Positions 1-62,879 of a DNA stretch of 64,000 nt are shown one piece after another. The stretch's first letter is position 1, and every line of letters starts with the position of its first letter. The stretch covers positions 29,636,001 through 29,700,000 of the forward strand of contig NC_135901.1 in the NCBI RefSeq assembly GCF_964194155.1. The letters are read 5' to 3'. Origin of the DNA: Cetorhinus maximus. Its lineage: Eukaryota. Made by a program: the position numbers and the translations under genes. A model generated the notes under the pieces. That model ran no database searches. It saw only the letters and a program-made list of their open reading frames with translations, and was not told the DNA's origin.

Positions 1-181
1 ATGGCCTCTCCCCGGTGTGAACTCGCTGGTGTGTCAGCAGGTTGGATAACTGAGTGAATCCCTTACCACACTCAGAGCAGTTGAATGGCCTCTCCCCAGC
101 GTGAACATGTTGTTCAGTTTCCAGCTCAGATTGGAACCGGAATCCTTTCCCACCATCCCCACATGTTGATGGTTTCTCCAT
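1..181 (-). CDS. C2H2 zinc-finger gene G1, 5' part (runs off the window's left edge); first finger degenerate
   Basis: Hand translation from the ACCATGG ATG at 181: [60 protein letters not shown]. Exon-2 acceptor ttttgcag|G at ~539. Confidence 0.75.
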
Positions 182-1244
182 GGTGCGGGTGTCCTTATTT
201 CTTTGTATGTTTGATGATCAATTGAAGCCTCATCCACACACACAACACGTGTATGGTCTCTCCCTGCAGGGAACGGTGTATTAATTTTTCAGGCTGTGTA
301 ACTGGTGAAAGATCTTTCCACAGTCAGTGCACTGGAACACTCTCACTCAGGTGTGTGTGTGTCTCAGTGCTTTTCCAGTCCCCCTGATGTTTAAAATCTT
401 TTTAAGCAGACAAACAATTCTCCTTAGAGTTTCAATGACCGGTGATATTCAGCTCCTGATGAATTGAGTGATTCCATCAGATCACAACATGGTGTTTAGT
501 TTGAGATATTTGACTGTAAATCCTCCCCTTCTAATATCCTGCAAAAGAAGTTTACAAAAGTCATCACTCTCAGTACAGGATGGAAATTCATAACAGGCAA
601 TTCTAGTTGCTATGGAGCATTCTTTCCTCTCCCACTGCCCCATAGCTGTAAATCTCCAACCCATACACTCTTCCTCCATTCTCACTCTGCTGTACCTAAC
701 ATACACCCTCCCAATTGTCCTGAAGTTGTTGATTGATGCTGATCAACAGACAGATCCGTGTTCACTGCTTCCTGTCCTGGGCACAGGGACCTGAAACTCT
801 TTATGCAGGCTGCTAGCCTATTGGTTTCTAAATTACTGGAATAAAAGTGTGTGTAATACTGTGCACTAGAATTGTGTTACTTGCTTGGAGATGGAGGGAG
901 AATGCAAGGAAGAACTTTCTTTGGGAGCAAGTGGTGATGACCTGGAACTCGCTGCCTATGAGGCTGGTGAAAATGGAGACGATCAATGATTTCAAAATTC
1001 AATTTGATGGGCACTTGGAGGAAATAAACTTACAGGGGAATGGGGATATAGAGGGGGAATGGGACTGACTGGATTGCTTCACAGAGTTGGCAGGAAGTCT
1101 AGTGATGACTCCAGGACTGGAAATATACAATGTAGCTACAGTTCTATATTATAAGACTAGAAATAATAATAAATGAACTTTAGTACAGAACCATGAATAA
1201 TTTATATAAAATATATATCTTATAACAACACTAGACATATCTCT

Positions 1245-7545: not shown

Positions 7546-8153
7546 TCTGAGTCCAGGACATGAAGCATTGACCATGGTTCTGCCAATCAGCAGGAATCGG
7601 CACCTTCAGGAGAATTGGGAAAGTGTATATTAGGTACAGCAGAATGAGAATGGAAGAGGGGCCGTGGTGTGGGACGGAGATTTACAGCTTTTGGGAATGA
7701 GAGAGGAAAGAATGTTCCATGGAAACCAGAATTGTCTGTTCTGAATTTCTATCTTGTACTGACAGTGATGACTTTAGTAAACTCCTTTTACAGGATATTA
7801 GAAGGGGAGGATTTGCAGACAAATCTCAAACCAAACATCATGTCAAGATCTGACAGAGTCACATGATCCATTGGGAGCTGAATATCATTGGCCTTTGAAT
7901 CTAGAAGGAGAAATGTTTGTCTGTTCTGTCTGCTTCAACGGGTTCTAAACATCAGTGTGACTGGAAAAGCACCGAGACCCACACACCCGAGTGAGAGTGT
8001 TCCAGTGCACTGATTGTGGAAAGAGCTTTAACCAGTTACACAGCGTGAAAAAACATCACCATTCACAGCGGAGAAAGACTGCATGCGTGTTCCACGTGTG
8101 GACGAGTCTTCAACTGATCACCGAACATGGAGAGACACAAGGACACCCGCATC

Positions 8154-8612
8154 ATGGAAAAACTGTGGAAATGTGGGGACTGTGGGAAGGGATTCTTTTT
8201 CCCATCTGCTCTTGAAACTCATCGACGCAGTCACACCAGGGAGAGGCCATTCACCTGCTCCGAGTGTGGGAAGGGATTCACTCACTCATCCGCCCTGCTG
8301 ACACACCAGCGAATTCACACTGGGGAGAGGCCGTTCACCTGCTCCAAGTGTGGGAAGCGATTCAGTGATTCATCCGCCCTGCTCTCACATCAGCGAGTTC
8401 ACACCAGGGAGAAGCCATTCATCTGTTCTGTGTGTGGCAAGGCATTCACTCAGTCAGCCAGCTTGCAGACACACCAAAAAGTTCACACTGGGAAGAGGCC
8501 TTTCACCTGCTCTGACTGTGGGAAGGGATTCAGTGATTCATCCAAACTGCTGAAGCACCAGCGAATTCACACTGGGGAGAAGCCATCCATCTGCTGTGTG
8601 TGTGGGAAGTGA
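8154..8612 (+). CDS. C2H2 zinc-finger gene G2: 5 intact fingers, nonsense codon in finger 6 (ancestral ORF ends at 8828, 8 fingers)
   Basis: ORF track 8127..8612. The frame continues after TGA to cacaagTGA at 8826-8828. Acceptor ttttacag|G at ~7793. Confidence 0.75.
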   Translation: MEKLWKCGDCGKGFFFPSALETHRRSHTRERPFTCSECGKGFTHSSALLTHQRIHTGERPFTCSKCGKRFSDSSALLSHQRVHTREKPFICSVCGKAFTQSASLQTHQKVHTGKRPFTCSDCGKGFSDSSKLLKHQRIHTGEKPSICCVCGK

Positions 8613-12859: not shown

Positions 12860-13282
12860 TCACTTGTGTACTCGCTGGTGTCTCAGCAAGTGTGGTGAAT
12901 GAGTGAATCCCTTCCCACACAGGGAGCAGGTGAATGGCCTCTCCCCAATGTGAATTCGCTGGTGGGTCAGCAGATTGGATGAAGCACAGAATCCCTTCCC
13001 ACACTCAGAGCAGGTAAATGGCCTCTCCCCGGTGTGAACCCGCTGGTGTTGCAGAAGATTCGATAAGTGTTTTAATCGCTTTCCACACATGGAGCAGGTG
13101 AATGGCCTTTCCCCGGTGTGAACTCGTTGGTGTGTCTGCAGGTGGGATAATCGACTGAATCCCTTCCCACACACAGAGCAGGTGAACGGCCTCTCCCCGG
13201 TGTGACTGCGTAGATGAGTTTTCAGCGCAGATGGGAACCGGAATCTTTTCCCACAGTCCCCGCATTTCCACGGTTTCTCCAT
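12860..13282 (-). CDS. C2H2 zinc-finger gene G3, 5 fingers, intact ORF (140 aa)
   Basis: [10 protein letters not shown]...HQRVHK*, TGERP linkers, ACCATGG start, conserved 3' UTR. Confidence 0.88.
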
Positions 13283-14189
13283 GGTGCAGGTGTCCTTGTG
13301 ACTCTGCAGGTTTGATGATCAGTTGATGCCTTGTCCACACACACAGAACACGTGTACAGTCTCTCCCCGCTGTGAATGGTGTGATATGTTTATCAGGCTG
13401 TGGAACTGGTTAAGGCTCTTTCAACGGTCACTGCACTGGAACACTCTCACTCGGGTGTGTGTGCTTTTCCAGTCATACTGATGTTTAAAACCTTTTGAAG
13501 CAGACAAACCTTTCTCTTTCTAGAAACAAAAGTCAATGATATTTAGGTCCTGCTAAATCGAGTGACTCTGTCAGGTTCTGGCCTGACATTTGGTTTGAGA
13601 TTTCTGTCTGCAAATCCTCAGCTTCCAATTTCCTGTAAAAGGTGTTTACAAAAGTCATCTCTGTCAGTGCAGGATAGAAATTCAGAACACACAATTCTAG
13701 TTTCTATAGGACATTCTTTCTTCTCTTCTTTCATTTGCCCACCGAATGGAAATAATGGCTGTATCACTGGTCTTAAAATGGGTGTAATCTACAGGAGTGT
13801 TTCACTGGGTTAAGATGCAGGCAATGCAAGGAAGAACATTGTTTAGGTAGCAAATGATCATGACCTGGAACCCGCTCCCTACGAGGGTGGTGGAATCAGA
13901 GAATTGAGTGGGCACTTGAAGCAAATAAACTTGCAGGTGAACGGGGATATAGAGGGGGAATGGGACTGACTGGATTGCTCTGCAGGGAATCGGCATGGAC
14001 TCAAGTTCCCACATGGACTTCTTCTGAGCTGCAATGACTATGACTGGAAATATGTAACGCAGCTACAGTAATATATTAGAAGACTACAAATAACAATCAA
14101 TGCACTTTATTACAGAACCATAAATAACATATCTAATATGTACCATATAACAACACTAGACATATCTCTGTCCTATATTCATTTACTTC

Positions 14190-21180: not shown

Positions 21181-21998
21181 GAGGAGTCCATTCGGCAACT
21201 GAAGACCACGCCAACTCACGGTAGAGCAATCAAGTTACTCCCATTCCCCCTCGATATCCCCGTCTCTCTGCAAGTTTATTTCCTTCAAGTGATCATCCAA
21301 TTTCATTTTGAAGTAATTGACTATCTCCACTTCCACCAGCCTTGTAGGCAGCGGGTTCCAGGTCAACACCACTTGCTGCCAAAATGAAGTTCTCCCTCAC
21401 AGCCCCATATATCTTTAATCATGTAATAGAGTACTGTGTATGACACACATTTTTAGCGCATTACTGTTGGGTGTATATTAGGTACAGCAGGGTGAGAATG
21501 GAGGGAGGGCGTGTTGGGGACAGAGATTTACAGCTTTGGGGGAATGAGAGGGGAAAGAATGTTCCATAGGAACTAGAAGTGTCTGTTCTGAATTTCTATT
21601 CTGTACTGATAGTGATGACTTTTGCAAGTCCTTTTACAGGATATTAGAAAGGGAGAATTTACAGACAGAAATCTCAAACCAAACATCACGCTCAGACCTG
21701 ATTCATTTGACTTATGCGACCTGAATATCACCGGCCTTTGAATCTAGAAGGAGAAATGCTTGTCTGTTCTATCTGTTTGAAGAGCTTTTAAACATCTGCG
21801 TGACCATAAAAGTACCAAGACACACACACCCGAGTGAGAGTGTTCCAGTGCACTGACTGTGGAAAGAGCTTTAACCAGTTACAGAGTCTGAAAAAACATC
21901 ACACTGTTCACAACCGGGAGGGACCGTAGCTGTGTTCTGCATGTGGATGAGGCTTCAACTGATCATTGAACCTGGAGAGACACGAGGCTAACCGAACC

Positions 21999-22280
21999 AT
22001 GGAGAAACTTTGGAAATGTGGGGACTGTGGGACGGGATTCAAATCCCCATCTGAACTGGAGATTCATCGACGCAGTCACAGTGGGGAGAGGCCGTTCACC
22101 TGCTCTGTGTGTGGGCAGGGATTCACTCATTCATCCTCGCTACTGACACACCAGCGAGTTCACACGGGGGAGAGGCCGTTCATCTGCTTCGAGTGTGGGA
22201 AGGGATTCTGTGATTCATCCAACCTGCTGATGCACCAGCGAATTCACAGCAGAGGAAGGTGGTTCACCTGCTCTGAGTGA
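21999..22280 (+). CDS. C2H2 zinc-finger gene G4: 3 intact fingers, TGT to TGA in finger 4 (ancestral stop 22335-22337)
   Basis: ORF track 21966..22280. ACCATGG at 21999. Acceptor ttttacag|G at ~21639. Confidence 0.65.
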
Positions 22281-29393: not shown

Positions 29394-30152
29394 TCACTTG
29401 TGAACTTGTTGGTGTCTCAGCCGGCTAGATAAATGAGTGAATCCCTTCCCACACTCAGAGCAGGTGAATGGCCTCTCTCCAGTGTGAATTCGCTGGTGTG
29501 CCTGCAGGTGGGATAACTGAGTGAATCCCTTCCCACACTCGGAGCAGGTGAACGGCCTCTCCCCGGTGTGAACTCGCTGGTGTGTCAGCAGGGTGGATGA
29601 AACAGTAAATCCCTTCCCACACTCGGAGCAGATGAAGGGTCTCTCCCCTGTGTGAACCGCCTTGTGTTTTTTAAGGTCAGATGAATTACTGAATCCTTTC
29701 CCACACTCGGAGCAGGTGAATGGTCTCTCCCCTGTGTGAACTCGCTGATGTCTCAGTAGGTTGGATGATTCAGTGAATGCCTTGCCACACACAGAGCAGA
29801 TGAACGGCCTCTCCCCGGTGTGAACTCGCTGATGTGTCAGTAGGTGGGTTGAATTACTGAATCCCTTCCCACAATCGAGGCAGATGAATGGCCTCTCCCC
29901 CATGTGAACTCGCTGGTGTGTCAGCAGAGAGGATGAATGAGTGAATCCCTTCCCACACTCGTAGCACGTGAACGGCCTCTCCCTGGTGTGAACTTGCTGG
30001 TGTCTCAGTAATGTAGATGAATGAGTGAATCTCTTCATACACGCAGGGCAGGTGAACGGCCTCTCCACAGTGTGACTGTGTCGATGAATCTCCATCTCAG
30101 ATGGGGATTTGAATCCCTTCCCACAGTCACCACATTTCCACGGTTTCTCCAT
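29394..30152 (-). CDS. C2H2 zinc-finger gene G5, 9 fingers, intact ORF (252 aa)
   Basis: ORF track 29394..30185. Conserved ACCATGG at 30152, nine 28-aa fingers, conserved 3' UTR with AATAAA at ~29136-29141 (-). Confidence 0.9.
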
Positions 30153-31729
30153 GGTGCAGGTGTCCTTGTGTCTCTCCAGTTCCAATGATTAGTTGAAACC
30201 TCGTCCTCACGCAGAACATATATAATGTCTCCCCTCACTGTGAATGGTGTAATGTTTTTTCAGTCTGTGTAACTGGTGAAAGCTCTTTCCACAGTCAGTG
30301 CACCAGAACACTCTCACTCGGGTGTGTGGGTCTCAGTGCTTTTTTGGTCAAAATGTTGTTTAAAATTTCTCGAAGCAGGCAGAACAGACAAACACTTCTT
30401 CTAGATTTAAAGGCCAATGATATTCAGGTCGCGATGAACCGAGTGACTCTGTCAGATCTTGATGTAAAGTTTGTTTTAAGATTTGCAAATCCTCCCCTTC
30501 TAATATCCTGTAAAAGGAGTTTACTCTCAGTACAGGATAGACATTCAGAACAGGCAATTCTAGTTTCTAAGGAACGTTCTTTCCTCTCTCGTTCCCCAAA
30601 AACTGTAAATCTGCTTCACACACACTCTCCCTCCATTCTCACTCTGCTGTATCTAACATACACCCAGCAGGGCTGCACTAAAAATGTGTGTAATATACAG
30701 TGTTAGGGTCGAAACAGTGAACTGTCAAGGAGTGTTTCAGTTGGTAATTGTAGCTTAATTGACAAGTATCTCACTGGGTGTATCTAAAGGGGAAACAGGT
30801 GAGATAATGTGTGTGTAGAATTGTGCGTGTGCTGAAATAAAACTCTGCTTGAAGAAGCAAAGTCCTGGTTTCTGTGTTTATTATCAAGCAGCCATCGGAG
30901 CTTAACATACAGTGCTCCATTACTTGATTAGGGACAGATGGGTCTGTTAGGGAGAACTTTATTTCGCCAGTGAGTGCTGATGACCTGGATCTCACTGTCT
31001 ACGAGGGTGGTGGGAGCAGAGACCGTCAATAATTTCAAAACAAAATTGGATGAACAGACGAAGGAAATAATCTTGCAGGGGAACAGGGATATAGAGGGGG
31101 AATGGGACTGAGTGAATTGCTCTGCAGAGAGTCGGCATGGGCTCAAGTTGCAGAATGGACTCCTTCTGTGCTGTAATGATTCTATGACTGGATATTCATA
31201 ACGTAGCTACAGTACTGTAGGAACTGGGAATAGGAATGATAGTAAATAAACTCTTTTACAGAACCAGAATTAATATATTTAAAATGTTTCCCATCACAGC
31301 ATTAGACATATCTATGTCCTATATTATTGTATTGTCCAGGGGGCAGAACTCTTACAAAATAAAATAAGGAACACGTCAGCCATGGGGCTGGAGGCATGGC
31401 TGGGGTTGTGGTGCTGGTGACCAAGAGAGCAGTTTGTTGGGGGTTGCGGATTTCAATATGAGAAGGGCTGGGGAGAAGGGGTCTTGAGATAATAATAGTG
31501 GGAGGGGTGGAGGTTAAAGTTAACCAAAACTTACAACTTATTTTGTTCGGTCAGAATATCATCATCTCCCTGCTGGCCAACTCACTCACTTGCCGTCTCA
31601 CTTAAACTCAGTCTGGAGACTCCCGGGGTCAGTTTCCCACCAGCTGTCCTAGAAATACGGGGCAAAAGGCAAAATAAGGGGCAATCTCTTAAAATACAGG
31701 ACAGTTAATTACCCTGAAATTGTCCCCTT

Positions 31730-33049: not shown

Positions 33050-33295
33050 AAGGTTAGGTTTAGCGTTAAGTTCAGGTTAGGTTTAAGTTTAGGGTTATGG
33101 TTAGGCTTAGGGTTAGGACTATGGCTGGGTTTAGGGTTATGATTAGGTTTAGCGTTAGGTTTAGAGTTATGGTTAACGTTAGTGTTATGGGTAGGTTCAG
33201 GGTTAGGTTTAGGTTTAGGGTTACCGTTTGGGTTATGGTTAGGTTCTGGGTTAGGTTTAGGTTTAGGATTAGGGTTAGTGTTAGTGTTAGGTTAA
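33050..33295 (+). repeat. Degenerate telomere-like array (TTAGGG/TTAGGT/TTATGG), G-rich on the plus strand
   Basis: Direct inspection. Confidence 0.9.
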
Positions 33296-35489
33296 GGACA
33301 TATGCTTCAAGCAACAGATCAAGCATGGATGTAAAAGATTCTCCAGCTCTCTCCTTACCTCTGTCCAACTTGTGGACAGTTCTCACTCAGTATTATTTCT
33401 CCCAAGCCCTTAATTGTCCTAATCCAAATTTTTTATCACTTTTACTTCAGTTTTACTCACTTTGTGACCATGACCAGTGTGTTTAATTCTATCCTGACTA
33501 TTTTAAAGTCAATTTCTCTCTGGAGTGTGTGTCAGTGCCTTGATGATGTCAAAATGTTCTCATTCCTCTGGCCACATTAACCATTTGACGTCATGCTGTT
33601 TGTCAAGTAGCTGTGTATGTTTGGGACCCATCCCTCAGTGCATTTCACCAGGAATTTCCCAGTATTATTTGGTTACCATGTAATGATTCACATCTGCACA
33701 CTATAGCACGTTACACATTCTTGCCTTTCAGGCCATCTTATCAAAAGGTCAAAGTGGATGTCTGTCTCGAGATCATCACTTATCTCTCCCAACATGGTCC
33801 TGATATTTCAGGCAGTGGCCAGGCTCTCAAATGTGCTTTACTTTTAAAAAATAAGTTCACAGGCAAAGGATACAAATATAGGCAACAGAAAGTGATCAGC
33901 TTATTCATTTCACCTATAATTTCACTGGAATGTAGGCGGATACCAAGTTGATATATTCCACTGAACGAAACCCAAGGTGAGTTATTCTGATTACTTTACC
34001 GTCCAGTACAATATTTTTAGAATATCTTGAAACAGAAATTAAACATTCCCATTGCATTTCAGTTATTAACATATTCTGTTTGTATGTCCTTTATTTTAAA
34101 TGACAGACCGGGGTTATTCTCCTTGGAGCAAAGGAGGTTGAGGGGAGATTTGATGGAGGTGTACAAGATTATGACAGGTTTAGATAAGGTGGACAAAGAA
34201 AAGCTGTTCCCGTTAGCTGATGGCTCAAGACGAGGGGACACAGAGTGATGTTTCTCGGCAGGAGATGCAGGGAGGAGGTGAGGAAGCACATTTCTACACA
34301 GTGAGTGGTAATGAGCTGGAACTCACTGTCTGTGAGGATTGAGGATGGTGCAATTGGAGAAGATGACTGATTTCAAAGGGAAATTGGATGGGCACCTGCA
34401 AGGAATAAACTTTCACGGATAGGGTAATAGAATGAGGCAATTGGGCTGACTGCTTTCCTCTACAGAGTTGGCATTCACTCGATGGGCTGAATGGCCTATT
34501 CCTCTCCCCTCATGACTTTGTGATCAAAAAAGCGAAATTTCAGCTGCTCCAGTCTCTCTAACTAACTGAAGTCCCTCATCCCTGGTGCCATTCTTGTAAA
34601 TCTCTTCTGCACCCTCTCGAAGAACTTCATATCTTTTCCAAAGTGTGGAGCCCAGATATAGGGTTCCATTCTAGAGAGGTAGAATTGAAAAGCAGGGAGG
34701 TTATGTTCAACTTGTTTCGAACCATGGTTAGACTACACTGGGAGTACTGTCAACATTTGTCATCTCCATTTAGAAAAAGGAAATAGAGGCATTGGAGAAG
34801 GGGCAACAAAGATTCACAAGTGTAATCCCAGAACTGAGAGCATTTAACCCTCAGGAAAGGCTGGGGCTGCTTTTCTCTAGAAAAGAGAAGACTGAAGGGT
34901 GACCTGATGGAAGTCCTTAATATTATGAAGAGGTTCAATAATCCAATAGGGATTTCATGAGAAACCTCTTTACCCAGCGAGTGGTGAGAACGTGGAACTC
35001 ACTACCACAGCGAGTGATTGAGGTGAATAGCTTGAATACATTTAAGGGGAAGCTAGATACATACATGAGGGAGAAAGGAATAGAAGGATATTCTGATGGG
35101 GGGAGATGAAGAGGGGTGGGTGGAGGCTCTTGCGTAGCATAAATACTGACAAAGACCAATTGAGCCGACTGGCCTGGCCCTGTGCTGTAGACTCAATGGA
35201 ACAGAGACAAATATATTTATTTTAGATCTACCTGTGGTGGTAGGAAAAACACTATGTACTGTCCAGGATAAAATAAATGTACTTCATCAGCTTTTGTGGG
35301 TCATTTCAGTGGAAATGTCCACTTCCAGACTCAAAGAACATCAGCCACTGGAAGCAAAGTCATGAGACCAGCCAGTCCAGCAGAAAGAAACCCTCCGACC
35401 CTCCCACTTTGCCAACTGTCTGAATGAACATGCTTCAGACCTGGATGTAATTAACAGCAGCAGTAACAGCAGAATCCAACCCCTGGAAT

Positions 35490-36156
35490 CACTTTCACCT
35501 GGTGTCTCAGCAGGTTGGATAAATGAGTAAATCCCTTCCCACAACAGAGCAGGTGAACGGCATCTCCCCAGTGTGAACTCGCTGGTGTCTCAGCAGGCCG
35601 GGTAAAATCATTGAATCCCTTCCCACACTCAGCAGCTGACAGGTCTCTCCTCAGTGTGAATGCGCTGGTGGCTCTCCAGTTCCTGAGAGCTTTTGAAGCC
35701 ACTTCCACAGTCTGATCATTTAAACGGTCTCTCATTCGTGTGAGTGACATGGTGTCGTAGGAGGTGGGAAAATTGCTTGAATCCCATTGCACACTCAGAG
35801 CAGGTGAATGGCCTTTTCCCGGTCTGAACTCATTGCTGTGTCAGTAGGTGGGATGAATCTCTGAATCCCTTCCCACACTCAGAGCAGGTGAATGGCCTCT
35901 CCCCGCTGTGAACTCGCTGGTGTGTCAGCAGGATGGATAACTGAGTGAATCCCTTCCCACACGCAGAGCAGATGAATGGCCACTCCCCAGAGTGAACTTG
36001 ACAGTGCCTCCACAGGGCAGATGAATCACTGAATCCTTTCCCACACTCAGAGCAGATGACCGGCCTGTTCCCAGTGTGACTACGTCGATGAGTTTCCAGC
36101 TTGAATGGGTACTTGAATCCCTTCCCACTGTCCCCACATGTCCACGGTTTCTCCAT
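35490..36156 (-). pseudogene. ZNF pseudogene G6 (stop at 35830, frameshifts downstream)
   Basis: ORF track 35830..36192. First finger lacks a Cys. Decayed fingers to ~35490, then the conserved 3' UTR. Paralogue of G11. Confidence 0.75.
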
Positions 36157-36992
36157 GGTGCGCCTGTCCTTGTGTCTTTCAAGGTTTGACAATCAGATGT
36201 AGCATTGTTTGCACACAGAACATGTGTACAGTCTCTTCCCGCTGGGAATGGTGAGGTTTTTTCAGGCTGTGTAACTGGTTAAAGCTCTTTCCACAGTCAG
36301 TGCACTGGAAACACTCTCACTCAGGTGTGTGTGCCTCTCGGTGCTTTTCCAGTCACACTGGTGTTTAAAACCGTTCAAAGCGGACAGAGCAGACAAACAT
36401 TTCCCCTTCGAGATTCAAAGGCTGATGATGTTTTCATTCCCCAAAAGCTGTAAATCTCCAACCCACACACTCTCCCTCCATTCTCACTCTGCTGTACCTC
36501 ACATAACCCCTCCCAATTCTCCGAAAGGTGCTGATTCATGCTGATCGACAGATCAATGCTGATTGCTTGTTCCCCCTGGACACAGAGATCTGAAAATCTT
36601 CCTGCATCATCATTGGGACAGTATCACTTGGTTAAGACACAGGGGCGATGTGAAGAAGCAGGTGGTCATGACCTTGAACTCGCGGCCTACGAGGATGGTG
36701 GAAGCAGAGACAATCAATGATTTCAAAATCAAACTGGGTGGACACTTGAAGGAAATAAACTTGCAGGGGATTAGGGATATAGAGGGGCAATGGGACTGAC
36801 TGGATCGCTCTGCAGAGAGTCAGCATGGATTCAGTTGCCAAATGGACTCCTTCTATGCCGTAATGACTCTGACTGAAAATATATAACCTAGTTACAGTAC
36901 TATATTACAAGATTAGAAATAATAATAAAATGTATCTTATTACTGAACCATAAATAATATATCTAATATGTACCATATAACATTAGCCATAT

Positions 36993-38267: not shown

Positions 38268-39150
38268 GCATTAATAGGGAGGATTTGTAGACAGGAAATG
38301 CAAACCAAACATCATGTCACGATCTGATAGCATCGCTCAACTTATCAGGGCCTGACTATTATCAGCCTTTGAATGCAGAACGAAAAATTATTTGTCTATC
38401 TACTGAAAAGTTTTCAGCTATCAGTGTGAAGCTTCAACTGTCACCCGACAGGAGGTGAACTATATAAGCATGGCAGTGGGAGAGCTTTGAGAAAGCAAAC
38501 CAAGCTGGAAACTCAACCGTGCAGTCACAGTGGGGAGAAGCCATTCACCTGCTCCATGTGTGGGAAGGGATTCGTTTGCTCATGCACCCTGCTTAATCAC
38601 TGACTAGTTCACACTGTGGAGAGGCCCTTTGCTCGCTCCCAGTGTGTGAAGAGATTCAGGGATTCCTCTCACCTGCTGGGACACCACGAGAGGCCAGTCA
38701 CCTGCTCTGAATGTTGGAAGGGATTCACTCACTCATTGAGCTTGATAACATATCAATGAGCTCACTCTGGAGAGAGACCAGTCACCTGATCTAACTCGGA
38801 AGGGATTCACTCAGTCAGCCAAGCTGCTGGCACACCAGTGAATTCACATTGGGGAGAGACATTTAAATGTTCCATGTGTGGGAAGGAATTCAGCCAATCC
38901 TACAGCCTGTTGACACACCAGGAAGTTCACACCAGGGAAAGGCTGTTTGAAAGTTCACTCGCTCGTCCCATCTCCTGACACACCAGCGAGTTCATGTTTG
39001 ACTGCAGGGGTTGGATTCTGCTGTTATTGCTGCTGCTAATCACATCCAGGACTGAACCATGTTCATTCAGTTGGGGTCTGTTTCTGCTGATGTGAATAAT
39101 CCCTGTAACTGGGCTGGAGTTTAATATTCTGGGTAAATGACAAATAAATC
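38268..39150 (+). pseudogene. ZNF pseudogene G7 (divergent partner of G6) with acceptor, fossil acidic leader, about 6 broken fingers and 3' UTR
   Basis: tttacaag|gcattaatagggaggatttgtagacaggaaatgcaaaccaaacatc is homologous to the exon-2 start of the other genes. Many stops and indels. aataaa at ~39143. Confidence 0.75.
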
Positions 39151-40189: not shown

Positions 40190-41062
40190 CCTAACCCTAA
40201 CCCTAATCCCTAACCCCTAACCTTAACCCTAAACCTAACCATACCCCTAAACCTAACAATACCCGTAAGCCTAAACACAACCGTAAACCTAACCCTAAAC
40301 TTAACCCTAAACCTAACCATAACCTTAAACCTAACCCTAACCCTAAACCTAACCCTAACCATAAACCTAAACATAACCCTAAACCTAACCTTAACCATAA
40401 ACCTAATTCCTAACAATAAACCAAACTCTAAACTTAACTCTAACCCCAAACCCTCACTATAAACCTAACCATAACCCAAAACCTAACCGTAATCCTAACC
40501 CTATCCACAACCCTGAACCTAACCCGAAAGGTAACCATAACCATATACCTAACCAAAACCCTAAACCTAGCCATGACCGAGCCCTAACCCTAAACCTAAC
40601 CATAACCCTAAACCTAACCATAACCCTAAACCTAACCATGAATCAAACCATAACACCAACCCTAACCCTAAACCGAGCCTAACTGTAACGCTAATTCTAA
40701 CCGTAAACCTAACCCTAACCCTAGCCCTAAACCAAACCATAACCCTAAACCTAACCATGAATGTAACCATAACCCCAACCCTAACCCTAAACCTAACACT
40801 AAACCTAACCGTAACCCTAAATCTAACCATAACCCTAACCCTAAACCTAACCATAGCCCTAAACCTAACCATAAAGCTAACCATAACCCTACCCGTAACG
40901 ATAACCCTAAACACAACCCTACCCCTAACCTTAACCCTAAACCTAGCCATAGCCCTAAACCTTACCATAACCCTAAACCTAACTCTAAACCTAACCATAA
41001 TGCCTAACCTAACCATAACACTAACCCGAACCCTAACACTAAACCCAACACTAACCCTAACC
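40190..41062 (-). repeat. Degenerate telomere-like array (CCCTAA/ACCTAA/CCATAA), C-rich on the plus strand, ~870 bp
   Basis: Direct inspection. Frequent 18-bp unit aaccctaaacctaaccat. Confidence 0.92.
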
Positions 41063-42179
41063 GGGAATATACGCTAACCTGTAAATAAACCTAATGCTAA
41101 CTGGGGATCCCAGAGCTTCTCCTGAATCACGTGGTGTCTTGTAGATTGTGGACAGACTTTGCAAATTCGGCACCTTCCAAATCCGTGACCCCTCCCACCT
41201 AGAAGGACAAGGGCAGCAGATGCATGGGAACACCACCACCTGCAAGTTCCCCTCCAAGCCACTCACCATCCAGACTCGGAACCATATCACAATTCCTTCA
41301 CTGTCACCGGGTCAAAACCCTGGAACACCCTTCCCAATATTTCCCCACATTATGCTCCATCTGCAAATGTTCTCCCACTCACTTAACCTACCTGTATCTT
41401 TTTGCAGACTCTCTAGCTCCTCTGGACAATTTACAAGGTCCCTCAAACAGCAACGTGGTAATGACCAGATGATAAGTTTTTGTGATGTTGATTGAGGGAT
41501 AAATGTTGACCGGGACACCGAAGAGAACTGCCCTGCTCTTCTTCCAGAATAATGAAGTGGGATATTTTTCATCCACCCGAGCAGGCAAATGAGGCCTCGG
41601 TGTAGCATCTCACTTGAAAGACGGCACATCCAACACGGCAGCACTCCCTTAGTACTGCACTGGAGGGTCAAATGTGAGTTTTGTGCTCAATTCCTGATTG
41701 GGGGCATGAGCCCAGAAGCTTGGGACTTAGAGGCATGAGTGTTACCCACTGAGCCCCGACTGACAATGAGGTGAAGAGGAGTGGGAGGAGGCATGTGTGG
41801 AGAACAAAAAACATCACAGATCAGGTGACCCGATTGGTTTGGTCCTTTGATGTTAATTCTATGTAATTTCAATAAGTAGAACATTTCAGACACGGATTAG
41901 TTGATTTCACACGAAAGATTTGTTTGGGTGAGATGCTGAAAGGGACCTGTTTTATTGTAAAATAATGTCTGCTGAGAGTCTCTGAATGAATGAGGAGAGA
42001 TCACACGCAGCAGTTCTTAAAGAGACACTGCTCATTCAGCAAATCAGCAATCCCAATTTATCCCACATCAAGGACATGACATAGGGTGTTCAATCCAAAG
42101 CTGATTCATTCCACTTACATCCAGAATAATAAACTCCAGGTCAGTTACAGGGGTCCTTAACATGAGCAGAAGTAAACCC

Positions 42180-43767: not shown

Positions 43768-44672
43768 TTTCTAGTTTTGTAATATAGTACTGCAACGATG
43801 TTTTATATTTCTAGTCATATATTCATTAAAAACACAGAAGGAGCCCATTTGGCAACTTGAGCACATGCCGACTCTCTTTGGAGCAATCCAGTCAGTCCCA
43901 TTCCCCCTCTATATCCCCATTCCTGTGCAAGCTTATTTCCTTCAAGTGCCCTTCCAATTTCATTTTGAAATCATTAATCATCTCTGCTTTCATCACCCTC
44001 GTAGGCAGTGAGTTCCAGGTCATCACAACTCTCTGCTGAAATACAGTTCTCCCTCACACCCCATGTGTCTCTGATTATGTAATGGAGTACTGTACATTTT
44101 AAGTACAGTATGATTGGGTATATACTGGGTAGATTAGATTTAGAATGGAGAGAGTGTAGCAGAGTAAGAATACAGGGACTGTGTGTGAGATGGAGATTTA
44201 CAGCTTTTGGGGAACAAGAGAGGAAAGAGTGTGCTGTAGAAACTAGAATTGTCTGTTCTGAATTTATATTCAGGACTGACAATAATGATTTTTGTAAACT
44301 CCTTTTGCAGGATATTATAAGTAGAGGATTTGCAGACGGAAATCTCAAACTAAACTCCACGTCGTGATCTGACAGAATCACTCGATTCACCGGGACCTGA
44401 ATATTATTGGCCTTTGAATCTAGAAGGAGAAATGTTTGTCTGTTCTGTCTTCTTCGAAAGCTTTTAAATATCACTGTGACTGGAAAAGCACCAAGACACA
44501 CACACCCAAGTGAGGGTGTTCCAGTGCACTGACTGTGGAAAGAGCTTTAACCAGTTACACAGCCTGAAAGAAACATCGCACCATTCACAGTGAGGAGAGA
44601 CATTATACACGTTCTGTGTGTGGACAAGGCTTCGCTGATTGTTGGACCTGGAGATACAAGGACACCCGCACC

Positions 44673-46259
<1,587 letters not shown>

Positions 46260-49175: not shown

Positions 49176-51438
49176 CGGAAACAATGACGATAACATGGTA
49201 GAATTTAGCATTCAGTTTGAGAGTGAGAAACTTGGGTTGGAAACAGCGGTGCTAAACTTAAATAAGGGAATCACAAGGGAATGAGGGCAGAGTTGACTGG
49301 AGTGGACTGGGGAAGGAGTTTAGCAGAAAAGATGGTTGATGAACAATGGCAGACGTTTAAGAAAATAGTTCATGACTCACAACAAAGATACATCCCAGTG
49401 AGGAAGAAGGATTCTAGGAAGGGGATAAACCAACCATGGTTAACCAAGGCAGTTCATGGTAGTATCAAATTGAAAGAAAAAACGTACAATATGGCAAGGA
49501 TTAGTGGTAAACCAGAAGATTGGGAAAGTTTTAAAAACCAACAAAAGATTACCAAAAAAAAGAGAGAAAATAAACTTTGTGGGTAAACTAGCAAGTAACA
49601 TAAAGACGGACAGTAAGAGCCTCTCTACGTATATGAAAAGGAAGAGAGAGGGAAAAGTGAACAGAGACCCCTAAGAGAATGAGGCTTGGGAGATAATAAT
49701 GGGGAACCAGGAAATGGCAGAGGAGTTGAATACATACTTTGCCTCAGTCTTCACGGTAGAAGACACTAACAGCATTCCAAAAATACTAAATCATCAAGGG
49801 GCAAAGCCGGTGGGGGGTGGTGTTGGGGGAGGAAATAAATACAAAAACTATCACCAGAGAAAAAGTACTAGAGGAACTAATGGGGCTAAAGGCCGATAAA
49901 TCCCCTGGACCTGATGGGTTGCATCCTAGGATATTAAAGGAAGTAGCTACAGAGATGGTGGATGCAGTGGTAGTGATCTTCCAAGAGTTCTCAGATTCTG
50001 GAAAAGTCCCAAAGGATTAGAAAATTGCCAATGTAACACCCTTATTCAAAATGGGAGGGAGACAAAAAAAAGGAAGCTATTTGCTTAACATCTGTCATTG
50101 AGAAAATATTAGAGTCTATTATAAAGGATGTAATAGCAGAGCATTTAGAAATACATTATATAATCAAGCAGAGTCAGCATGGCTTCATGAAGGGGAAATC
50201 ATGCCTGACAAATTTATTTGAATTCTTTGAAGAGCTAACAAGCAGGATAGATAAAGGGGAGCCAGTAGATGTGATATATTTGGATTTCCAAAATGTATTT
50301 GATAAGGTACCACACATAAGGCTAATTAATAAGATAAGAGCCCATGGTGTTGGCATGGATAGAGGATTGGGTAACTAATAGAAGACAGAGAGTTGGGATA
50401 AGGGGGGAATTTTCAGGATGGCAACTTGTAACTAATGGGGTGCCAAAGGGATTGGTGCCGCAATTATTTACAACATATATTAATGAGTTGGATGAGGGAA
50501 GTGAATGTAATATCGCCAAGTTTACGGATGACGCAAAAATAGGTAGGAAGGCAATTGGTGAGGATGACACAAAGAGTCTACAGAGGGATATAGACAGGTT
50601 AGGTGAGTGGGCAAAAACTTGGCAGATGGAATGTAATGTAGGAAAATGTGAGGCTATATACTTTGGCAGGAAGAATAGAGGAGTTGAATATTATTTAAAT
50701 ATCGAAAGACAACAGAAAGCTGCGCAGAGGGACTTGGGGGTCCTTATGCATGAATCACAAAAAGCTTACATACAAGATCAACAGGTAATAGGGAAGGCAA
50801 ATGGAATGTTGGCCTTTATTTCAAAGGGAATGGAGTATAAACATAGGGAAGTCTTGCTAAAATGATACAAGGCACTAGTTAGACCACACCTAGAATACTG
50901 TGAACAGTTTTGGTCCCCTTATCTAAGGAAAGATATACTGGCATGGGATTCAGTCCAGAGAATTGCTAGGTTGATCCCGGGTATGGAGGGATTTTCTTAT
51001 GAGGAGAGATTGAGTCGGTTGGGCCTGTACTCATTGGAGTTTAGAAGAATGAGAGGTGACCTTATTGAAACATATAAGATTCTTAGGAGGCTTGACAGGG
51101 TAGATGCTGAGAGGTTGTTGCCCTTTGTGGGAGAGTCTAGGACTAGAGGGCACAATCTCAGAGTAAGGGGTCGTCCATTTAAGACAGAGATGAGGACGAA
51201 TTTCTTCTCTCAGAGGGTAGTCAATCTGTGGAATTCTTTACCGCAGAGGGCTGTAGAGGCTGGGTCATTAAGTATATTCAAGGCTGGGATAGACATATTT
51301 AATCAATAAGGGAATCAAGGGTTATGGGGGAAACGGCAGGAAAGTGCAGTTGAGGATTATCAGATCAGCCATGATCTCATTGAAATGCGGAGCAGACCCA
51401 ATGGGCTGAATGGCCTACTTCTGCTCCTCCGTCTTATG
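49176..51438 (+). mobile_element. CR1 LINE, 5'-truncated ~2.3 kb, disrupted ORF2 (RT)
   Basis: KSPGPDGLHPRILKE, GKSCLTNLFEFFEE, NGVPKG, AKFTDD, QRDLGV, FFSQRVVNLWNSLP. 3' tail tgaatggcctacttctgctcct. Confidence 0.93.
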
Positions 51439-51965: not shown

Positions 51966-53050
51966 TGATTGCCATGGTGTCTCAGTCGGTCGGATGACTC
52001 TGTGAATCCCTTTCCACATTCACAGCAGATGAACGGCCTCTCTCCTCCGTGTGTGGTTGCCTGTGCTTCTGCAACCTGGATGAATCCGCGAATCCCTTCC
52101 CAAACTCAGAGCAGGTGAACGGCCTCTCCCCAGTGTGAACTCGCTCATGTCTCCCGAGGCTGGAGAAATCCCCGAAGCCCTTCCCACACTTGAAGCAGAT
52201 GAACGGCCTTTCTCCACTGTGAACTCGCTGGTGTGTTAGCAGATTGGTTGACCGAGTAAATCGTTTTCCACACACGGAGCAGGGGAATGGTCTCTCTCTG
52301 GTGTGAACCGCCTGGTGTTGCAGCGGGGTTGACAACTGAATGAATGCTTTCCCACACAAGGAACAGGTGAATGATCTCTCCCCAGTGTGAACTCTCTCAT
52401 GCACCAGCAGGTTGGATGAATGACTGAATCCCTTCCCACACTCAGAGCAGGTGCATAGCACCTTCCCAGTGTGAACTCGCTGGTGATTCTGCAGGGCAGA
52501 TGAATTAGTGAATCCCTTCCCACACTCAGAGCTGGTGAACAGCTTCTCCCTGGTGTGTATTCGCTGGTGTCTCCACAGGTTGGATGAAAGAGTTTCTTCC
52601 ACAAAGGAAACATTAGAATGACCTCACCCCAGTATGAACTCGCTGGTGTCTCGCGAGGCTGGATGAATCGCCGAATCCCTTCCCACACACAGAGCAGGTG
52701 AATGGCCTTTCCCCGGTGTGAACTCGCTGGTATGTCAGCAGACTGGGTGATCTAGTAAATCCCTTGCCACACTCAGAGCAGGTGAATGGCCTCCCTCCAG
52801 TGTGAACTGCCTGGTGTCGCAGCAGGGGTGATAACTGAGTGAATCCCTTCCCACAAATGGAGCAGGTGAATGGCCCCTCCCCGGTATGAACCTGCATGTG
52901 CACCAGCAAGTTGAATGACTGAGTCAATCCCTTCCCACACTCGGAGCAGGTGAATGGCCTTTCCACGGTGTCAGTGCGTCGATGTGTTTCCAGCTCAGAC
53001 GGGGCTTTGAATCCCTTCCCACAATACCCACATTTTCTGGGTTTCTCCAT
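51966..53050 (-). pseudogene. ZNF G9 (about 12-13 fingers; stop at 52613 then frameshift; acceptor and standard 3' UTR missing)
   Basis: ORF track 52613..53059 and 51982..52602. ACCATGG at 53050. Confidence 0.8.
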
Positions 53051-53224
53051 GGTGCGCATGTCCTTGTGTCTCTTTAGGTTCTACAATCAAATGAAGACTC
53101 ATCCACACAGAACATGTGCATGGTCTCTCCTCACTGTGGATAGCGATGTTTTTTCAGGCTGTGTAACTGGTTAAAGCTGTTTCCACAGTCAGTGCACTGG
53201 AAAAACTCTCACTCGAGTGTCACA

Positions 53225-53930
53225 GTGTCTTTAAGAGAGAGAGAGAGAGAGACCTGGGCCAATCTTTCCAGAGACTGCACCCTCCCTGGATTCACTTCCT
53301 TTCCCTTCAGTTCCTGCAAGTCAACAATTTCCCCCCAGAATGAGAAAAGAAATGGAAAAGGGGAAACATTGATTTCCTCACAATGTTGCCCAGAGGAGGA
53401 AGTTTCAATCTGAAGCTCATTGTCCAACTTCTGCATTGTGACGTCAAAATGGAACCGTGCCTGAATCAGCCAATAGGAATCACGGTGTTCTGCGATGACG
53501 TCCTCGGGTTCCAGTCTGTAGGCCAGGCGTTCGGACACGGGAGCCCCGCCCCCACCCATTGTTCCCCCTCCACCTCCTCGAGCCAAGGTTTCCAGACAAC
53601 CGGCTGACGGCTCCGGCCAGGGCGAGAAGCCGCTTGTCGAACTCGGGAGAGGGGAAGCTGCGCATGTGCGGGGTAGATCCCGCCCCTTCCCTTCATGCTG
53701 AGGGATTGACCAACAGGAAGAGTTGGAGGACCGGAAGGACTCTAGTCCACCAGCCAATCAGAGCGCGAGCTTTGTGTGAATGAAGATTGAGCTTCACGCA
53801 GACGAAAACTTCCTCCTGTTTCCAACATCTGTGAGTAAAACACTTTCTTTTCTCCCCCTTTCCATTTCTTTTCTCATTCTGGGGGCAAATTGTTGACTTG
53901 CAGGAACTGAAGGGAAAGGAAGTGAATCCA
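53225..53930. promoter_or_regulatory. Composite head-to-head promoter P8: variant-B exon 1 (minus, G9) fused to variant-A exon 1 (plus, G10)
   Basis: The left half matches the reverse complement of 42590-42900. The right half matches 5925-6280. Plus-strand donor aacatct|gtgagt at 53831. Confidence 0.8.
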
Positions 53931-55398
53931 TTTAAAGGAGAATTAGCATTTGTTTTGAAAATGCTTCTGATTTTTTTAGACCCCAAGGTGATCAATGTTG
54001 GGTCCCTGGTATCTGCCCGGGTGGGGGGAGGGGCACCAGACCTGGCCTCAGTGCCACAGGAGGCAAAGCCGGGGTTCCTGCTCCTCACGGTGATCCCCCG
54101 GCTGGGAGGGGCCTTAGGTCTTATTCATCAAGAATGTGCCCCCCTCACGTCGCTCCCGGAGGGTCAATCGGCAAATGGTGTAGCCAACGTGCAGCCAGTG
54201 CCAGGGTGTGAAGGGTGGACACTGAGAGGCTGTTTCCCCCGGCTGGGGAATCTAGAACACGGGGGCACAGTCTCAGGATAAGGGGCCGATCATTTCAGAC
54301 TGAGATGAGGAGTAATTTCTTCACTCAGAGGCTTGTGAATTTTTGGAATTCTCTTATCCATCTGGTTCACCAATACCTTTCAGGGAAGGAAATCTGCTGC
54401 CCTTACCTGGTCTGACCTACATGTGAATCTGGACCCACAGTGATGTGGCTGACCCTTAACTGCCCTCGTAAATGGCCGAGCAAGACACTCAGTTGAACCA
54501 AACCGCGACAGAAAAGTCGGACCTGATGGACTGCAGAGGTTCACAAGGTGGCTCAGCCCCAACTTTTCAAGGGCAACTAGGGAGGGGCAACAACTATTGG
54601 CCTTGCCTGTCACGCCTACATTACATGAAATGATAATAAAAATCCCAGCATGTTGTGGGTGCCCAGTCACTGAGTATCTTCAAGAGAGAGAATGATAGCT
54701 TTTTGAATATTATAGGATGAACGGATTTGGGGACAGTGCAGGTCAGGCATGATCTTACTGAATGACAAAATAGGCTTGAGGGGCAGAATGGCTTCTTCCT
54801 GCTCCTATTTCTTATGTTCTTATGTTACCAGGATCATCAGGAGAGAATGGGAATAATTAACACATCGAGTAATCATTGAGGACAGAAGGAGGGAGGGGAG
54901 TGAGTGTGGGTGGGTGGATGGGTGGGGAGGATTTACAGATGAGATGGGCGAACAATTGAATCCAATCAAGGATTATCTGTTCTGAATTTCTAATCTGTAC
55001 CCACAGTGATGTCTTTTGTAAACTCCTTTTACAGGACATTAGAAGGGGAGGATTCACAGACAGAACTTACAAATGAAACGTGACGTCAGGATCTGATAGA
55101 ATCACTCGATTCATCAGGAGCTGAATATCATCGGCCTTTGAATCTAGAAGGAGAAATTTTTGTCTGTTCTGCCTCTTTCAAAAGATTTTAAACATAAGTG
55201 TCACTGAAAAAGCATTGAGACACACACACCTGAGTGGAGAGTATTCCAGTACACTGACTGTGGAAAGAGCTTTAACCAGTTACACAGACTGAAAAACATC
55301 ACACCATTCACAGCGGAGAGAGACCGCTCATGCATTCGCTGTGAGGACGAGGCATGAACTGATCGTCGAATCTGGAGAGACACAAGGATACTCACACC

Positions 55399-55989
55399 AT
55401 GGAGAGATCGTGGAAATGTGGGAACTGTGGGAAGGGATTCAAAGTCCCATCTGAGCTAGAAACTCATCGGCGCATTCATACCGGGGAGAGGCCGTTCACC
55501 TGCTCTGAGTGTGGGAAGGGATTCACACAGTTATCCCACCTGCAGATACACCAGCGAGTTCACACTGGAGAGAGGCCATTCACCTGCTCTGGGTGTGGGA
55601 AAGGATTCACTAATTCATCCAACCTCCTGACACACCAGCGAGTTCACACTGGGGAGAGGCCATTCGCCTGCTCTGAGTGTGGGAAGGGATTCAGTGATTC
55701 ATCCACCCTACGAACACACCAGCGAGTTCACACTGGGGAAAAGCCATTCACCTGCTCTGAGTGTGGAAAGGGATTCACTCAGTTATCCAACCTGCGGAAG
55801 CACCGGCGACTTCACACCGGGGAGAGGCCGTACACCTGCTCTGAGTGTGGGAAGGGATTCAGTGATTTATCCAACCTGCTGGCGCATGAGCGAGTTCACA
55901 CTGGAGAGAGGCCGTTCACCTGCCCTGTGTGTGGGAAGAGATTCACTCAGTCATGCCACCTGCTGAGACACCAGCGAGTTCACAAGTGA
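55399..55989 (+). CDS. C2H2 zinc-finger gene G10, 7 fingers, intact ORF (196 aa)
   Basis: ORF track. ACCATGG start, acceptor ttttacag|G at ~55033, 3' UTR with AATAAA at 56257. Confidence 0.92.
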
Positions 55990-56270
55990 TTCCAGGGGTT
56001 GGATTCTGCTGTTTTTGCTGCTGTTAATCACATCCAGGACTGAACCATGTTCATTCTGACAGTTGGTGAAGTGGGAGGGTCGGAGGGTTTCTTTCTGCCG
56101 GACTGGCCGGTCTCACGACTTTGCTTTCAGTGGCTGATACTCTTTGAGCCTGGGAGTGCACATTTCCACTGAAATGATCCACAAAAGCTGATGAAAGACA
56201 ATTATTTTATCCTGGATAGTAAATAGTGTTTTTCCTACCACTACAGGTAGATTTCCAATAAATACATCTG
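55990..56270 (+). other. Conserved ZNF 3' UTR element (also after G2, G3, G4, G5, G6, G8, G11)
   Basis: ggggttggattctgctg...cacatccaggactgaaccatgttcattctgac...gggagtgcacatttccactgaaatgatccacaaaagctgatgaa...caggtagat..aataaa. Confidence 0.85.
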
Positions 56271-61475: not shown

Positions 61476-62054
61476 TCACTGGTGTGTCTGCAGGTTGGAT
61501 GATGTTCGAAATCTCTTTGCACAGTGAGAGCAGCTGAATAGCCTCTCCTCAGTGTGAATGCGCTGGTGGAACATCAGGTCTGCAGTGCTTTTAAAGCCAC
61601 TCCCACACTCATAGCGTTGCAAGGGTTTCTCATTGGTGTGACTGCCCTGGTGTCTCAGCAGGTTGGATGACTGAGTGAATCCCTTTCCACACACGGAGCA
61701 GGTGAACGGTCTTTCCCCAGTGTGACTTTGCTGGTGTCTCAGCAGGTTGGATAACTGAGTGAATCCCTTCCCACAATCAGAGCAGGTGAATGGCCTCTCC
61801 CCGGTGTGAACTCGCTGGTGTTTACGCTGGGCAGATGAATCACTGAATCCCTTCCCACACTCAGAGCAGGTGAACAGCCTCTCTCCAGTGTGAACTTGCT
61901 GGTGATTTTGCAGGATGACTAACTGAGTGAATCCGTTCCCACACTTGGAGCAGGTGAATGGTTTCTCCCCGGTGTGACTGCGTCGATGAATTTCCAGCTC
62001 ACTTGGGGATCTGAATCCCTTCCCACAGTCTCCACATTTCCACGGTTTCTCCAT
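61476..62054 (-). CDS. C2H2 zinc-finger gene G11, truncated in finger 7 (ancestral 11-finger frame ends at 61128; second stop at ~61225)
   Basis: ORF track 61476..62054. The frame continues to cacaagTGA at 61128-61130, followed by the 3' UTR. Confidence 0.7.
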   Translation of the reverse strand: MEKPWKCGDCGKGFRSPSELEIHRRSHTGEKPFTCSKCGNGFTQLVILQNHQQVHTGERLFTCSECGKGFSDSSAQRKHQRVHTGERPFTCSDCGKGFTQLSNLLRHQQSHTGERPFTCSVCGKGFTQSSNLLRHQGSHTNEKPLQRYECGSGFKSTADLMFHQRIHTEERLFSCSHCAKRFRTSSNLQTHQ

Positions 62055-62879
62055 GGTGCGGGTGTCCTTGTGTCTCTCCAGATTCGATGATCAGTTGAAG
62101 CCTCATCCACTCATGACAACACGCTTAAAGTTTCTCCCCACTGTGAATGGTACGATGTTTTTTTCAGGCTGTGTAACTGGTTAAATCTCTTTCCACAGTC
62201 AGTGCACTGGAACACTCTCACTCGGGTGTGTGCTTTTCCAGTCACACTCTTGTTTAAAATGTTTTGACACAGACAGAACAGATATTTTTCCTTCTAGTTT
62301 CAAAGACCAATGATGCTCTGTCAGATCTCGATATGATGTTTACTTGGAGATTTCTCTCTAGCAAGTCCTCCCCTTCCAATATCCTGTAAAAGGAGTTGGC
62401 AAAAGTCATCACTGTCAGTACAGGATAGAAATTCAGTACAGACAATTCGAGTTTCTAAGAAACATTCTTTCCTCTCTCATTCCCCAAAAGCTATAAATCT
62501 CCGTACCACACGCTCTCCCTCTATTCTCACTCTGCTGTAACGAACATACATCCTCCCAATTTATGTGGTTATCTCCTGGAACTCACTGCCGCTGATTGTG
62601 GTGGGAGCAGAGACAATCAGTTATCTCAAAATAAAATTGTATGGACACTTGCAGTGGAACGGTGATATAGAGGGGGAATGGGACTGACTGGATCGTTCTG
62701 AGTCGGCATGGACTCGAGTTGTGCTGTAAGGACCATGACTGGAAAAATATAACATAGTGATCTACTGTATTAGAAGAGTAGAATCAATTATAAATGTACT
62801 TTATTACAGAACTATCAATAATCTATCTAATATGTACCATATAACAACACTAGACATATCTCTGTCCGATATTAATTCA

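Follow-up and report, generated by a model that had tools for sequence, protein, structure and literature searches.

The window, that is, the whole 64-kb stretch of DNA analysed here, lies on a 65-Mb contig of the 4-Gb Cetorhinus maximus genome and holds ten copies of a two-exon C2H2 zinc-finger gene. The finger ORF of each copy is opened by an ATG in the context A(C/T)CATGG. All ten ATG sites that a sequence-only reading had proposed are present in that context and align column to column. The word AYCATGG occurs 28 times in the window against 25.8 expected, which is no enrichment, and the signal is its fixed aligned position.

The focal gene is on the forward strand and has a head-to-head partner. 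The pair shares a CpG-rich promoter region, seen in the sequence at 53450..53760 (unstranded, boundaries approximate), with motifs that we take to be CCAAT, NRF1-like and ETS-like. Inverted conserved exon-1/intron blocks at 53287-53405 and 53806-53930 flank this common promoter, and the arrangement recurs in the cluster. Exon 1 (53760..53830, 5′ end approximate) is placed by its donor GTGAGT at 53831, kept in most of the 75 exon-1 matches, and by splice joints in contigs from presumed RNA. It has no effector-coding frame, and its ATG at 53780 is out of frame and in weak context. The commonest exon-1 type, which includes this one, carries in most copies a putative 8-codon upstream ORF (uORF) 51 nt before the donor.

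The intron (53831..55034, GT...AG by sequence and splice joints) contains repeat fragments and ends in the acceptor TACAG, the last letter of which is 55034. Exon 2 starts at 55035. Its first 364 nt form the leader, in which a 40-codon segment precedes three dead fingers, and ACCATGG follows at 55399. The segment (N-segment, 55035..55155) is now non-coding, with an omega of 0.74 against 0.75 for the intron, and is common to a sister subfamily described below. Dead finger 1 (F1, 55156..55236) has its first Cys codon at 55165 and a TAA at 55189-55191, F2 (55237..55318, end approximate) is frameshifted in this copy, and F3 (55319..55398) has a TGA at 55360-55362, which is CGA in the sister subfamily, and has lost its second His.

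The putative start codon (55399..55401), picked out by ATG retention across copies, falls as proposed on the Gly position of a finger linker. The ORF from it (55399..55989) translates to 196 aa with seven intact C2H2 fingers and nothing else. These have the C-x2-C-x12-H-x3-H repeats, the TGEKP-type linkers and the purifying selection expected of C2H2 proteins. A candidate poly(A) signal, AATAAA, follows at 56257..56262. The first live finger (F4, 55417-55480 and its paralogs) has a fixed unusual motif, in which W precedes the first Cys and the helix has P at position 1, S at 2 and E at 5.

Three other copies are also on the forward strand, with leader and ATG at 7794..8156 (ATG 8154, 152 aa, 5 fingers), 21640..22001 (ATG 21999, 93 aa, 3 fingers) and 44311..44675 (ATG 44673, 109 aa, 3 fingers, then a frameshift). 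The reverse strand has six, at 179..545 (ATG 181, leader start approximate, ORF running off the window), 13280..13632 (ATG 13282, 140 aa, 5 fingers), 30150..30507 (ATG 30152, 252 aa, 9 fingers), 36154..36432 (ATG 36156, without the N-segment, 108 aa, 2 fingers), 53048..53220 (ATG 53050, 145 aa, 3 fingers) and 62052..62383 (ATG 62054, 192 aa, 5 fingers). The one at 53048..53220 is the partner of the focal gene; its N-segment and F1 are deleted and its ATG is kept.

The window also contains, at 38503-39068, a finger array in heavy decay whose leader is truncated and which has no MEKP start. Degenerate hexamer arrays resembling telomeric repeats, with low-complexity ORFs, lie between genes at 32992-33483 and 40570-41073. 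Broken LINE reverse-transcriptase fragments are at 49266-51306 and about 20600-21000, one of them inside an intron.

The finger-1 TAA had been taken as common to the copies. This holds in nine of the ten window copies (7946, 21789, 44465 and 55189 on the forward strand; 393, 13487, 30362, 36367 and 62256 on the reverse), the tenth, at 53050, having lost the part that would hold it. In the wider sample, however, the TAA is subfamily-specific, being present in 57 of 84 copies and replaced by CAA in 15. A second F1 position, four codons after the TAA, is a stop in 68 of 84 copies and TCA in the focal one; genome-wide it is TGA in 96 of the first 100 listed of 491 matches. The finger-3 stop is found in all ten window copies, in nine by pattern and in the focal one as the TGA at 55360, and its position is a stop in 79 of 83 sampled copies. 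The family-wide stops are the two TGAs and not the finger-1 TAA, which corrects the earlier reading.

The family extends far beyond the window. The leader as a query returned 3592 candidates in the genome, with 37 of the best 40 on the window's contig. An exact 26-nt start pattern has 737 matches, so at least 737 copies share the start of this subfamily, which we call MEKP. Because the pattern catches only 40 of 85 sampled copies, the total extrapolates to roughly 1,500 copies, a figure that counts pseudogenes and may count assembly duplicates. One gene has near-identical copies at 0.9, 3.4, 6.3 and 13.5 Mb of C24 and on three small contigs (L018-L022, L025, L027), which point to recent large segmental duplications or assembly duplicates.

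Our sample spans 1.33 Mb with 182 exon-start anchors, 85 of which entered the MEKP alignment, while 23 of 29 entered that of the sister subfamily. A further 62 were unclassified and used only in the upstream-anchor survey and in counting ATG retention and upstream ATGs (uATGs). The motif used to choose the 85 MEKP copies itself contains the ATG and the first Cys. Among 100 copies chosen regardless of the ATG, 94 retain it, 90 of these with A at −3. Four or more intact fingers follow the ATG in frame in 54 of the 85 copies, fewer than four in 31 and none in 13, so many copies are pseudogenes, and this spread is as expected of a birth-and-death family.

We measured rates in 42 disjoint nearest pairs among the 85 aligned MEKP copies. 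Frameshift indels per kb-pair number 7.41 in the intron, 6.89 in the leader and 1.11 downstream, and the net frame from acceptor to ATG is random across the 85 copies (29:30:26). With 0.75 as the intron null, omega is 0.74 in the N-segment, 1.04 in F1, 0.51 in F2, 0.63 in F3, 0.44 in F4 and 0.46 in F5. The structural-codon pN/pS is 0.59, 0.45 and 0.93 in F1, F2 and F3 versus 0.16, 0.02 and 0.16 in F4, F5 and F6. All four zinc ligands are present in 29/70, 35/72 and 7/77 versus 74/84, 78/81 and 73/84 copies, respectively. These rates show that the leader decays like the intron and that the constraint begins at the ATG. The earlier claim that fingers are better preserved 3′ of the ATG thus holds quantitatively in indels, structural codons and ligands alike, and the decay on the two sides, equality of which had been named as its refutation, is sharply different.

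The contact residues behave differently on the two sides as well. The ratio of contact to structural pN is 0.99 (0.76–1.25) in the dead fingers and 8.53 (5.4–13.7) in the live ones. The contact-residue pattern falls short of demonstrating positive selection, because contact-site pN tops the regional pS only in F6 (1.39), being 0.77 of it in F4 and 0.93 in F5.

The leader appears in transcripts. Contigs from presumed-RNA runs of two studies join 53831 to 55038, 55039 and 55044, and the letters between are exactly the missing exon-2 letters from 55035. For a second gene, the contigs of three runs extend from the dead fingers F1–F3 into the ATG, with GT–AG ends in 0 of 15 joints displayed of 100. 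The contigs are the relatives', at 82% likeness or more, from runs only guessed to be RNA, and the displayed joints are 15 of 114 for the first gene. Exon 1 splices to the leader in the relatives' transcripts, which is not proof for the focal copy. The joints, the indels and the random frame together bear out that the decayed upstream region is exonic and evolves as non-coding sequence. The transcript joints, upstream frames and protein models contain no effector-coding exon spliced onto the MEKPW finger, which the sequence-only reading had named as its other refutation.

A sister subfamily, MEGK, is new here. Its exon starts in the same way and reads N-M-E-G-K-S-T-(I/V)-H-S-G-E-K-P-Y-T-C. It is without F1–F2 and has an intact F3, an H-T/N-G-E-K-P-W-K-C linker and the same F4, so that it starts one finger earlier than MEKP. 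Its start pattern has 795 matches, giving at least 795 copies. Its loci include 0.5, 21, 34.6, 35.7, 60 and 63.4 Mb of G000:C24 (e.g. L077:8465-8764 and L151). No MEGK copy was found in the sampled 27–31 Mb cluster around the window, which is pure MEKP.

In MEGK, F3 is constrained, with a structural pN/pS of 0.11 and all ligands in 17 of 23 copies. MEGK has CGA and Gly at the diagnostic codons where MEKP has TGA and ATG, and the genome-wide patterns are 149 CGA+Gly, 2 TGA+Gly, 3 CGA+ATG (identical matches) and 262 TGA+ATG. Because the sister keeps F3 alive with CGA and Gly, the direction of change is fixed from finger to leader. Between the subfamilies, the F3 region has 4 synonymous and 17 nonsynonymous changes and F4 has 4 and 1, the WKCGDC...PS.LE finger being almost unchanged.

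In 16 of 25 MEGK genes with an upstream anchor, the nearest anchor is an extra copy of the leader segment, mostly 1–5 kb upstream (e.g. G000:C24:59962089, 21098819 and 34689712), and several such copies are tandem doubles ending at a donor-like GTAAGC. As some of them include finger 1 with its TGA, this stop may predate the MEKP/MEGK split. The joints at L166:6241-6499 come from transcript contigs in which a MEGK-like start is fused directly to the F4 linker, a further finger deletion. A loose-end consensus among the transcript contigs prompted a pattern search for a third type, which would combine a MEKP-like F3 with an intact linker, and this gave no match.

A tree of the N-segment alone splits the two subfamilies by one branch with support of 100, and it is unrooted. 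The F4–F5 tree does not recover the subfamilies (8 changes), and a single clade is not rejected there (p-AU 0.24). Another tree included the diagnostic columns and hence is not independent of the subfamily characters. With the tree unrooted, a single origin of the ATG rests on the N-segment split and the character states. Both favor the earlier proposal that the start arose once. Its further point, that the gene was amplified afterwards, is supported too.

The ancestor would have had the N-segment, F1, F2, F3, F4 and so on. In the MEGK lineage, F1–F2 would have been deleted, as suggested by an orphan finger tail that follows MEGK, and the start would be at codon 37. In the MEKP lineage, a CpG hit would have turned CGA into TGA in F3, and the linker would have gained its ATG through two substitutions in GGG or, alternatively, through a 2-nt slip of the out-of-frame ATG in CAC AAT GGA GAG. 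This variant is common among the CGA+Gly matches listed, and a pattern search for recurrence of the slip in MEGK genes gave none. Both subfamilies would then have multiplied by local duplication of whole units of promoter, intron and exon, with the dead fingers as passengers.

The named relatives of the leader are shark models, and its relics occur in models from four shark orders beyond the C. maximus genome. The tally of species left out protein matches possibly not independent of the C. maximus assembly. Sawshark and horn shark models end at the same F1 stop (FQTSV; P0001-P0003). MEKP-type starts or context are seen in bamboo sharks, smooth-hound and horn shark, and MEGK-type models in sawshark, horn shark, zebra shark, smooth-hound and whale shark. 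Since the relics span sharks of both superorders, both layouts predate the superorder split, which is over 200 million years old.

The same order of segment, MEGK-like junction, F3 (here degenerate) and F4 is seen in a sawfish model, with 33% identity over 88 aa (E 8e-13). Thus, by this likeness, the MEGK layout probably predates sharks and rays. No MEKP type was seen in rays by a search with little power. A skate match, P0033, was rejected as an unrelated zinc-finger protein (ZNF). A search for relatives with intact F1–F2 turned up, among 40 candidates, only generic ZNFs with no more than 49% identity, and this evidence is weak.

Upstream of the fingers, no KRAB, SCAN, BTB or SET domain was found, in agreement with the sequence-only reading. 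In Pfam searches, the 24 sense frames lying upstream of 8 genes matched nothing but finger remnants and a LINE reverse transcriptase, and the 37 protein models matched no families other than zinc-finger-type or weak, spurious ones. The N-segment itself has no Pfam match, and an atlas comparison (recognition 1117) gave nothing above a score of 0.81. A profile search of it against 1.84 billion representatives gave 37 proteins, which are shark-type models with mutually unrelated upstream parts and one moth mucin repeat, and none of the 37 reads through F1–F3 intact. Of these matches, 20 were looked up, with 17 named and 16 of them sharks; four further matches are named as sharks.

In its strong form, the earlier reading held that a true ancestral effector or linker domain was encoded by the 40-codon segment with exon 1 and that its loss began the expansion. 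The segment's reading frame is open and keeps register with the fingers, for which the chance is 0.046 given one natural copy's composition. Some exon-1 types supply an in-frame ATG, namely one type in about ten copies, 56 nt ahead of the donor, and three of seven distal exon 1s, at 50 nt, and the catshark model P0065 reads such an exon 1 into the segment. However, about 61 of 74 full exon-1 matches have no in-frame ATG, and exon 1 varies from subgroup to subgroup. The 6.5 synonymous and 11.5 nonsynonymous changes in the segment between the subfamilies are, by estimate, too few to separate from neutral. Outside sharks the profile found only the moth repeat among the matches named, and the upstream parts of the models bear no relation to one another.

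Moreover, the segment is neutral in MEKP, and 18 of 21 MEGK copies have a stop in it. Its loss therefore either preceded the MEKP ATG or was independent of it. The segment probably coded once, an effector role for it is considerably less probable than that, and the strong form as a whole seems rather doubtful. The lost N-terminal module does not stand as an effector, for it has no recognizable effector domain and is equally non-coding in the sister that starts one finger earlier. Being effector-less is hence a property of both subfamilies and not an outcome of the MEKP start shift, and the demonstrable loss in MEKP is that of fingers.

Somewhat less probable still is that the start shifted in the same way but the leader is kept for a function, with its stops and short uORFs or its finger-coding RNA tuning translation, export or chromatin. 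Finger-coding RNA is reported to affect polyadenylation and export in human cells (PMC6242934). A uATG precedes F1 in 57 of the 85 leaders, and on this reading its short uORF, closed by the stops of finger 1, would be among the elements kept. About 12% of pairs differ at the F3 stop, against a median of 23% for non-CpG leader codons, but the other F1 stop differs in 24%, equal to the median. F2 is the least diverged leader part and its omega (0.41–0.64) is below the intron null, but its non-CpG divergence of 0.082 overlaps the intron's 0.107, as do those of all leader parts, and the leader indel rate equals that of the intron. The divergence thus lends a regulatory role of the leader no support.

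Strong-context ATGs are rarer in the leaders (9/306) than inside the ORF (31/279), whereas the ATG density is equal (3.68 versus 3.28). A depletion of uATGs in the leader, with a mean of 3.6 against 7.5 expected, was rejected on this equality. The copies at 36156 and 53050 lost parts of the leader and keep the ATG and the ORF.

It is improbable that the family amounts mostly to pseudogenes in a neutral or selfish tandem repeat, without any function as proteins. The many copies short of four fingers and the near-identical blocks recurring along the chromosome would suit it. Against it, structural codons are strongly constrained downstream only, the CpG codon is kept 149:2 where its finger codes, and spliced transcripts exist, as presumed-RNA contigs of relatives. 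Readthrough or editing of the stops (TGA to Trp or Sec), by which the upstream fingers would still be translated, is very improbable, for although the two TGAs are nearly fixed and one subfamily has a TGA at a Cys codon (16/81), the frame is not kept across the stop, frameshifts accrue as in the intron, the ligands are lost and the TGA traces to the CGA of the sister.

With good confidence, then, we regard these genes as copies of one ancestral shark C2H2 gene in which three dead fingers have become an untranslated leader and translation likely starts from a newer ATG. Ribosomes may skip weak ATGs by leaky scanning or reinitiate after short uORFs. The main ATG is in strong context in 83 of 85 copies and the uATGs are so only in the 9 of 306 across the 85 leaders. 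Speaking against this account, a uORF overlaps the main ATG in 42 of 85 leaders, in strong context in 4. In the spliced focal leader, none of the four uATGs has a strong context and each of their uORFs terminates before 55399. Ribosomes would pass the weak uATGs, or reinitiate after the short uORFs, and then start at the sole strong-context ATG. Leaky scanning with some reinitiation would be the simplest account of MEKP translation. The protein likely starts at the newer linker ATG and would consist of DNA-reading fingers only.

As to function, the proteins would be sequence-specific DNA binders with diversifying contact residues that act without a separate effector domain; the contact-to-structural ratio of the live fingers is high, with contact pN/pS above 1 only in F6. 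They would probably aim at repeats and transposons, by analogy with the KRAB and FiNZ proteins. We give this joint reading about even chances. The first live finger, barely different between the subfamilies, is a candidate protein-interaction finger.

A bolder and distinctly speculative idea is that sharks defend their genome with thousands of ZNF genes that lack any effector domain, that this first live finger does the job of KRAB, and that the family expanded in two waves, both of them begun when the start codon retreated into the finger array. The start shift with its sister control is well supported by the sequence comparisons; initiation and function are inferred.

Cartilaginous fishes have more than 1000 tandem ZNF ORFs in several genomes, yet their KRAB-bearing families are reported lost (PMC10547256, PMC8455134). 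The supplement of Wells et al. 2023 counts 3586 ZNF ORFs in S. canicula, 1851 in C. carcharias and 1223 in A. radiata, and the whale shark paper reports that the families which cartilaginous fishes have lost show an enrichment for KRAB (PMC8455134). Wells et al. count the elasmobranch ORFs without describing them, the word 'shark' being absent from their main text (PMC10547256). ZNF clusters on two catshark chromosomes receive a mention only (PMC11979771). NCBI shark models named 'zinc finger protein 239-like' or 'uncharacterized' belong to the same family and some start with MEKPWKC, but the names come without a family definition and many models run into the dead leader with unrelated N-termini. 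The N-termini of such pipeline models are inconsistent because these genes carry a dead-finger leader before the start.

The literature searched, with most subscription papers and some supplement files of PMC10547256 outside it, held no prior account of the MEKP/MEGK family, and so the family is apparently undescribed. Two main shark ZNF subfamilies are now defined, neither with a recognizable effector domain. They provide a clean case of coding sequence turned into leader with a living sister as control. Their shared start contexts make a family-wide translation block feasible, as for the zebrafish FiNZ genes, and it would test the silencing of transposons by fingers alone.

The human ZNF252 (Lorenz et al. 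2010, PMC2865497) is the single-gene precedent for an N-terminal domain lost to the leader, as there, too, a stop-broken N-terminal coding sequence is left upstream of the ORF within the last exon. It differs in that a KRAB was lost and the dead fingers are 3′, whereas the shark dead fingers are 5′ and the truncated form founded many hundreds of genes.

The KRAB-ZNF clusters of sarcopterygians are alike in the tandem layout, the one finger exon, the constrained ligands, the fast contact residues and the frequent pseudogenes (PMC10380595, PMC11603059). They differ by the upstream KRAB, and none was found in the shark family. Indeed, membership in the KRAB, SCAN, BTB or PRDM9 types takes an upstream effector spliced in frame, and the shark genes have no Pfam effector and a random-frame leader instead.

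The FiNZ-ZNFs of cyprinid fish resemble the shark genes as a lineage-specific expansion of hundreds of clustered two-exon tandem C2H2 genes with one conserved start region (PMC10547256). They are defined by a conserved 28-aa acidic domain from the upstream exon, whereas in the shark genes neither exon 1 nor the opening 364 nt of exon 2 codes, and the front that they share is a relic of dead fingers; the shark genes are set apart by this description rather than by FiNZ sequences. By analogy, the MEKP and MEGK genes would work like the clustered, fast-diversifying KRAB repertoires of tetrapods and FiNZ repertoires of cyprinids, while standing outside both by membership.
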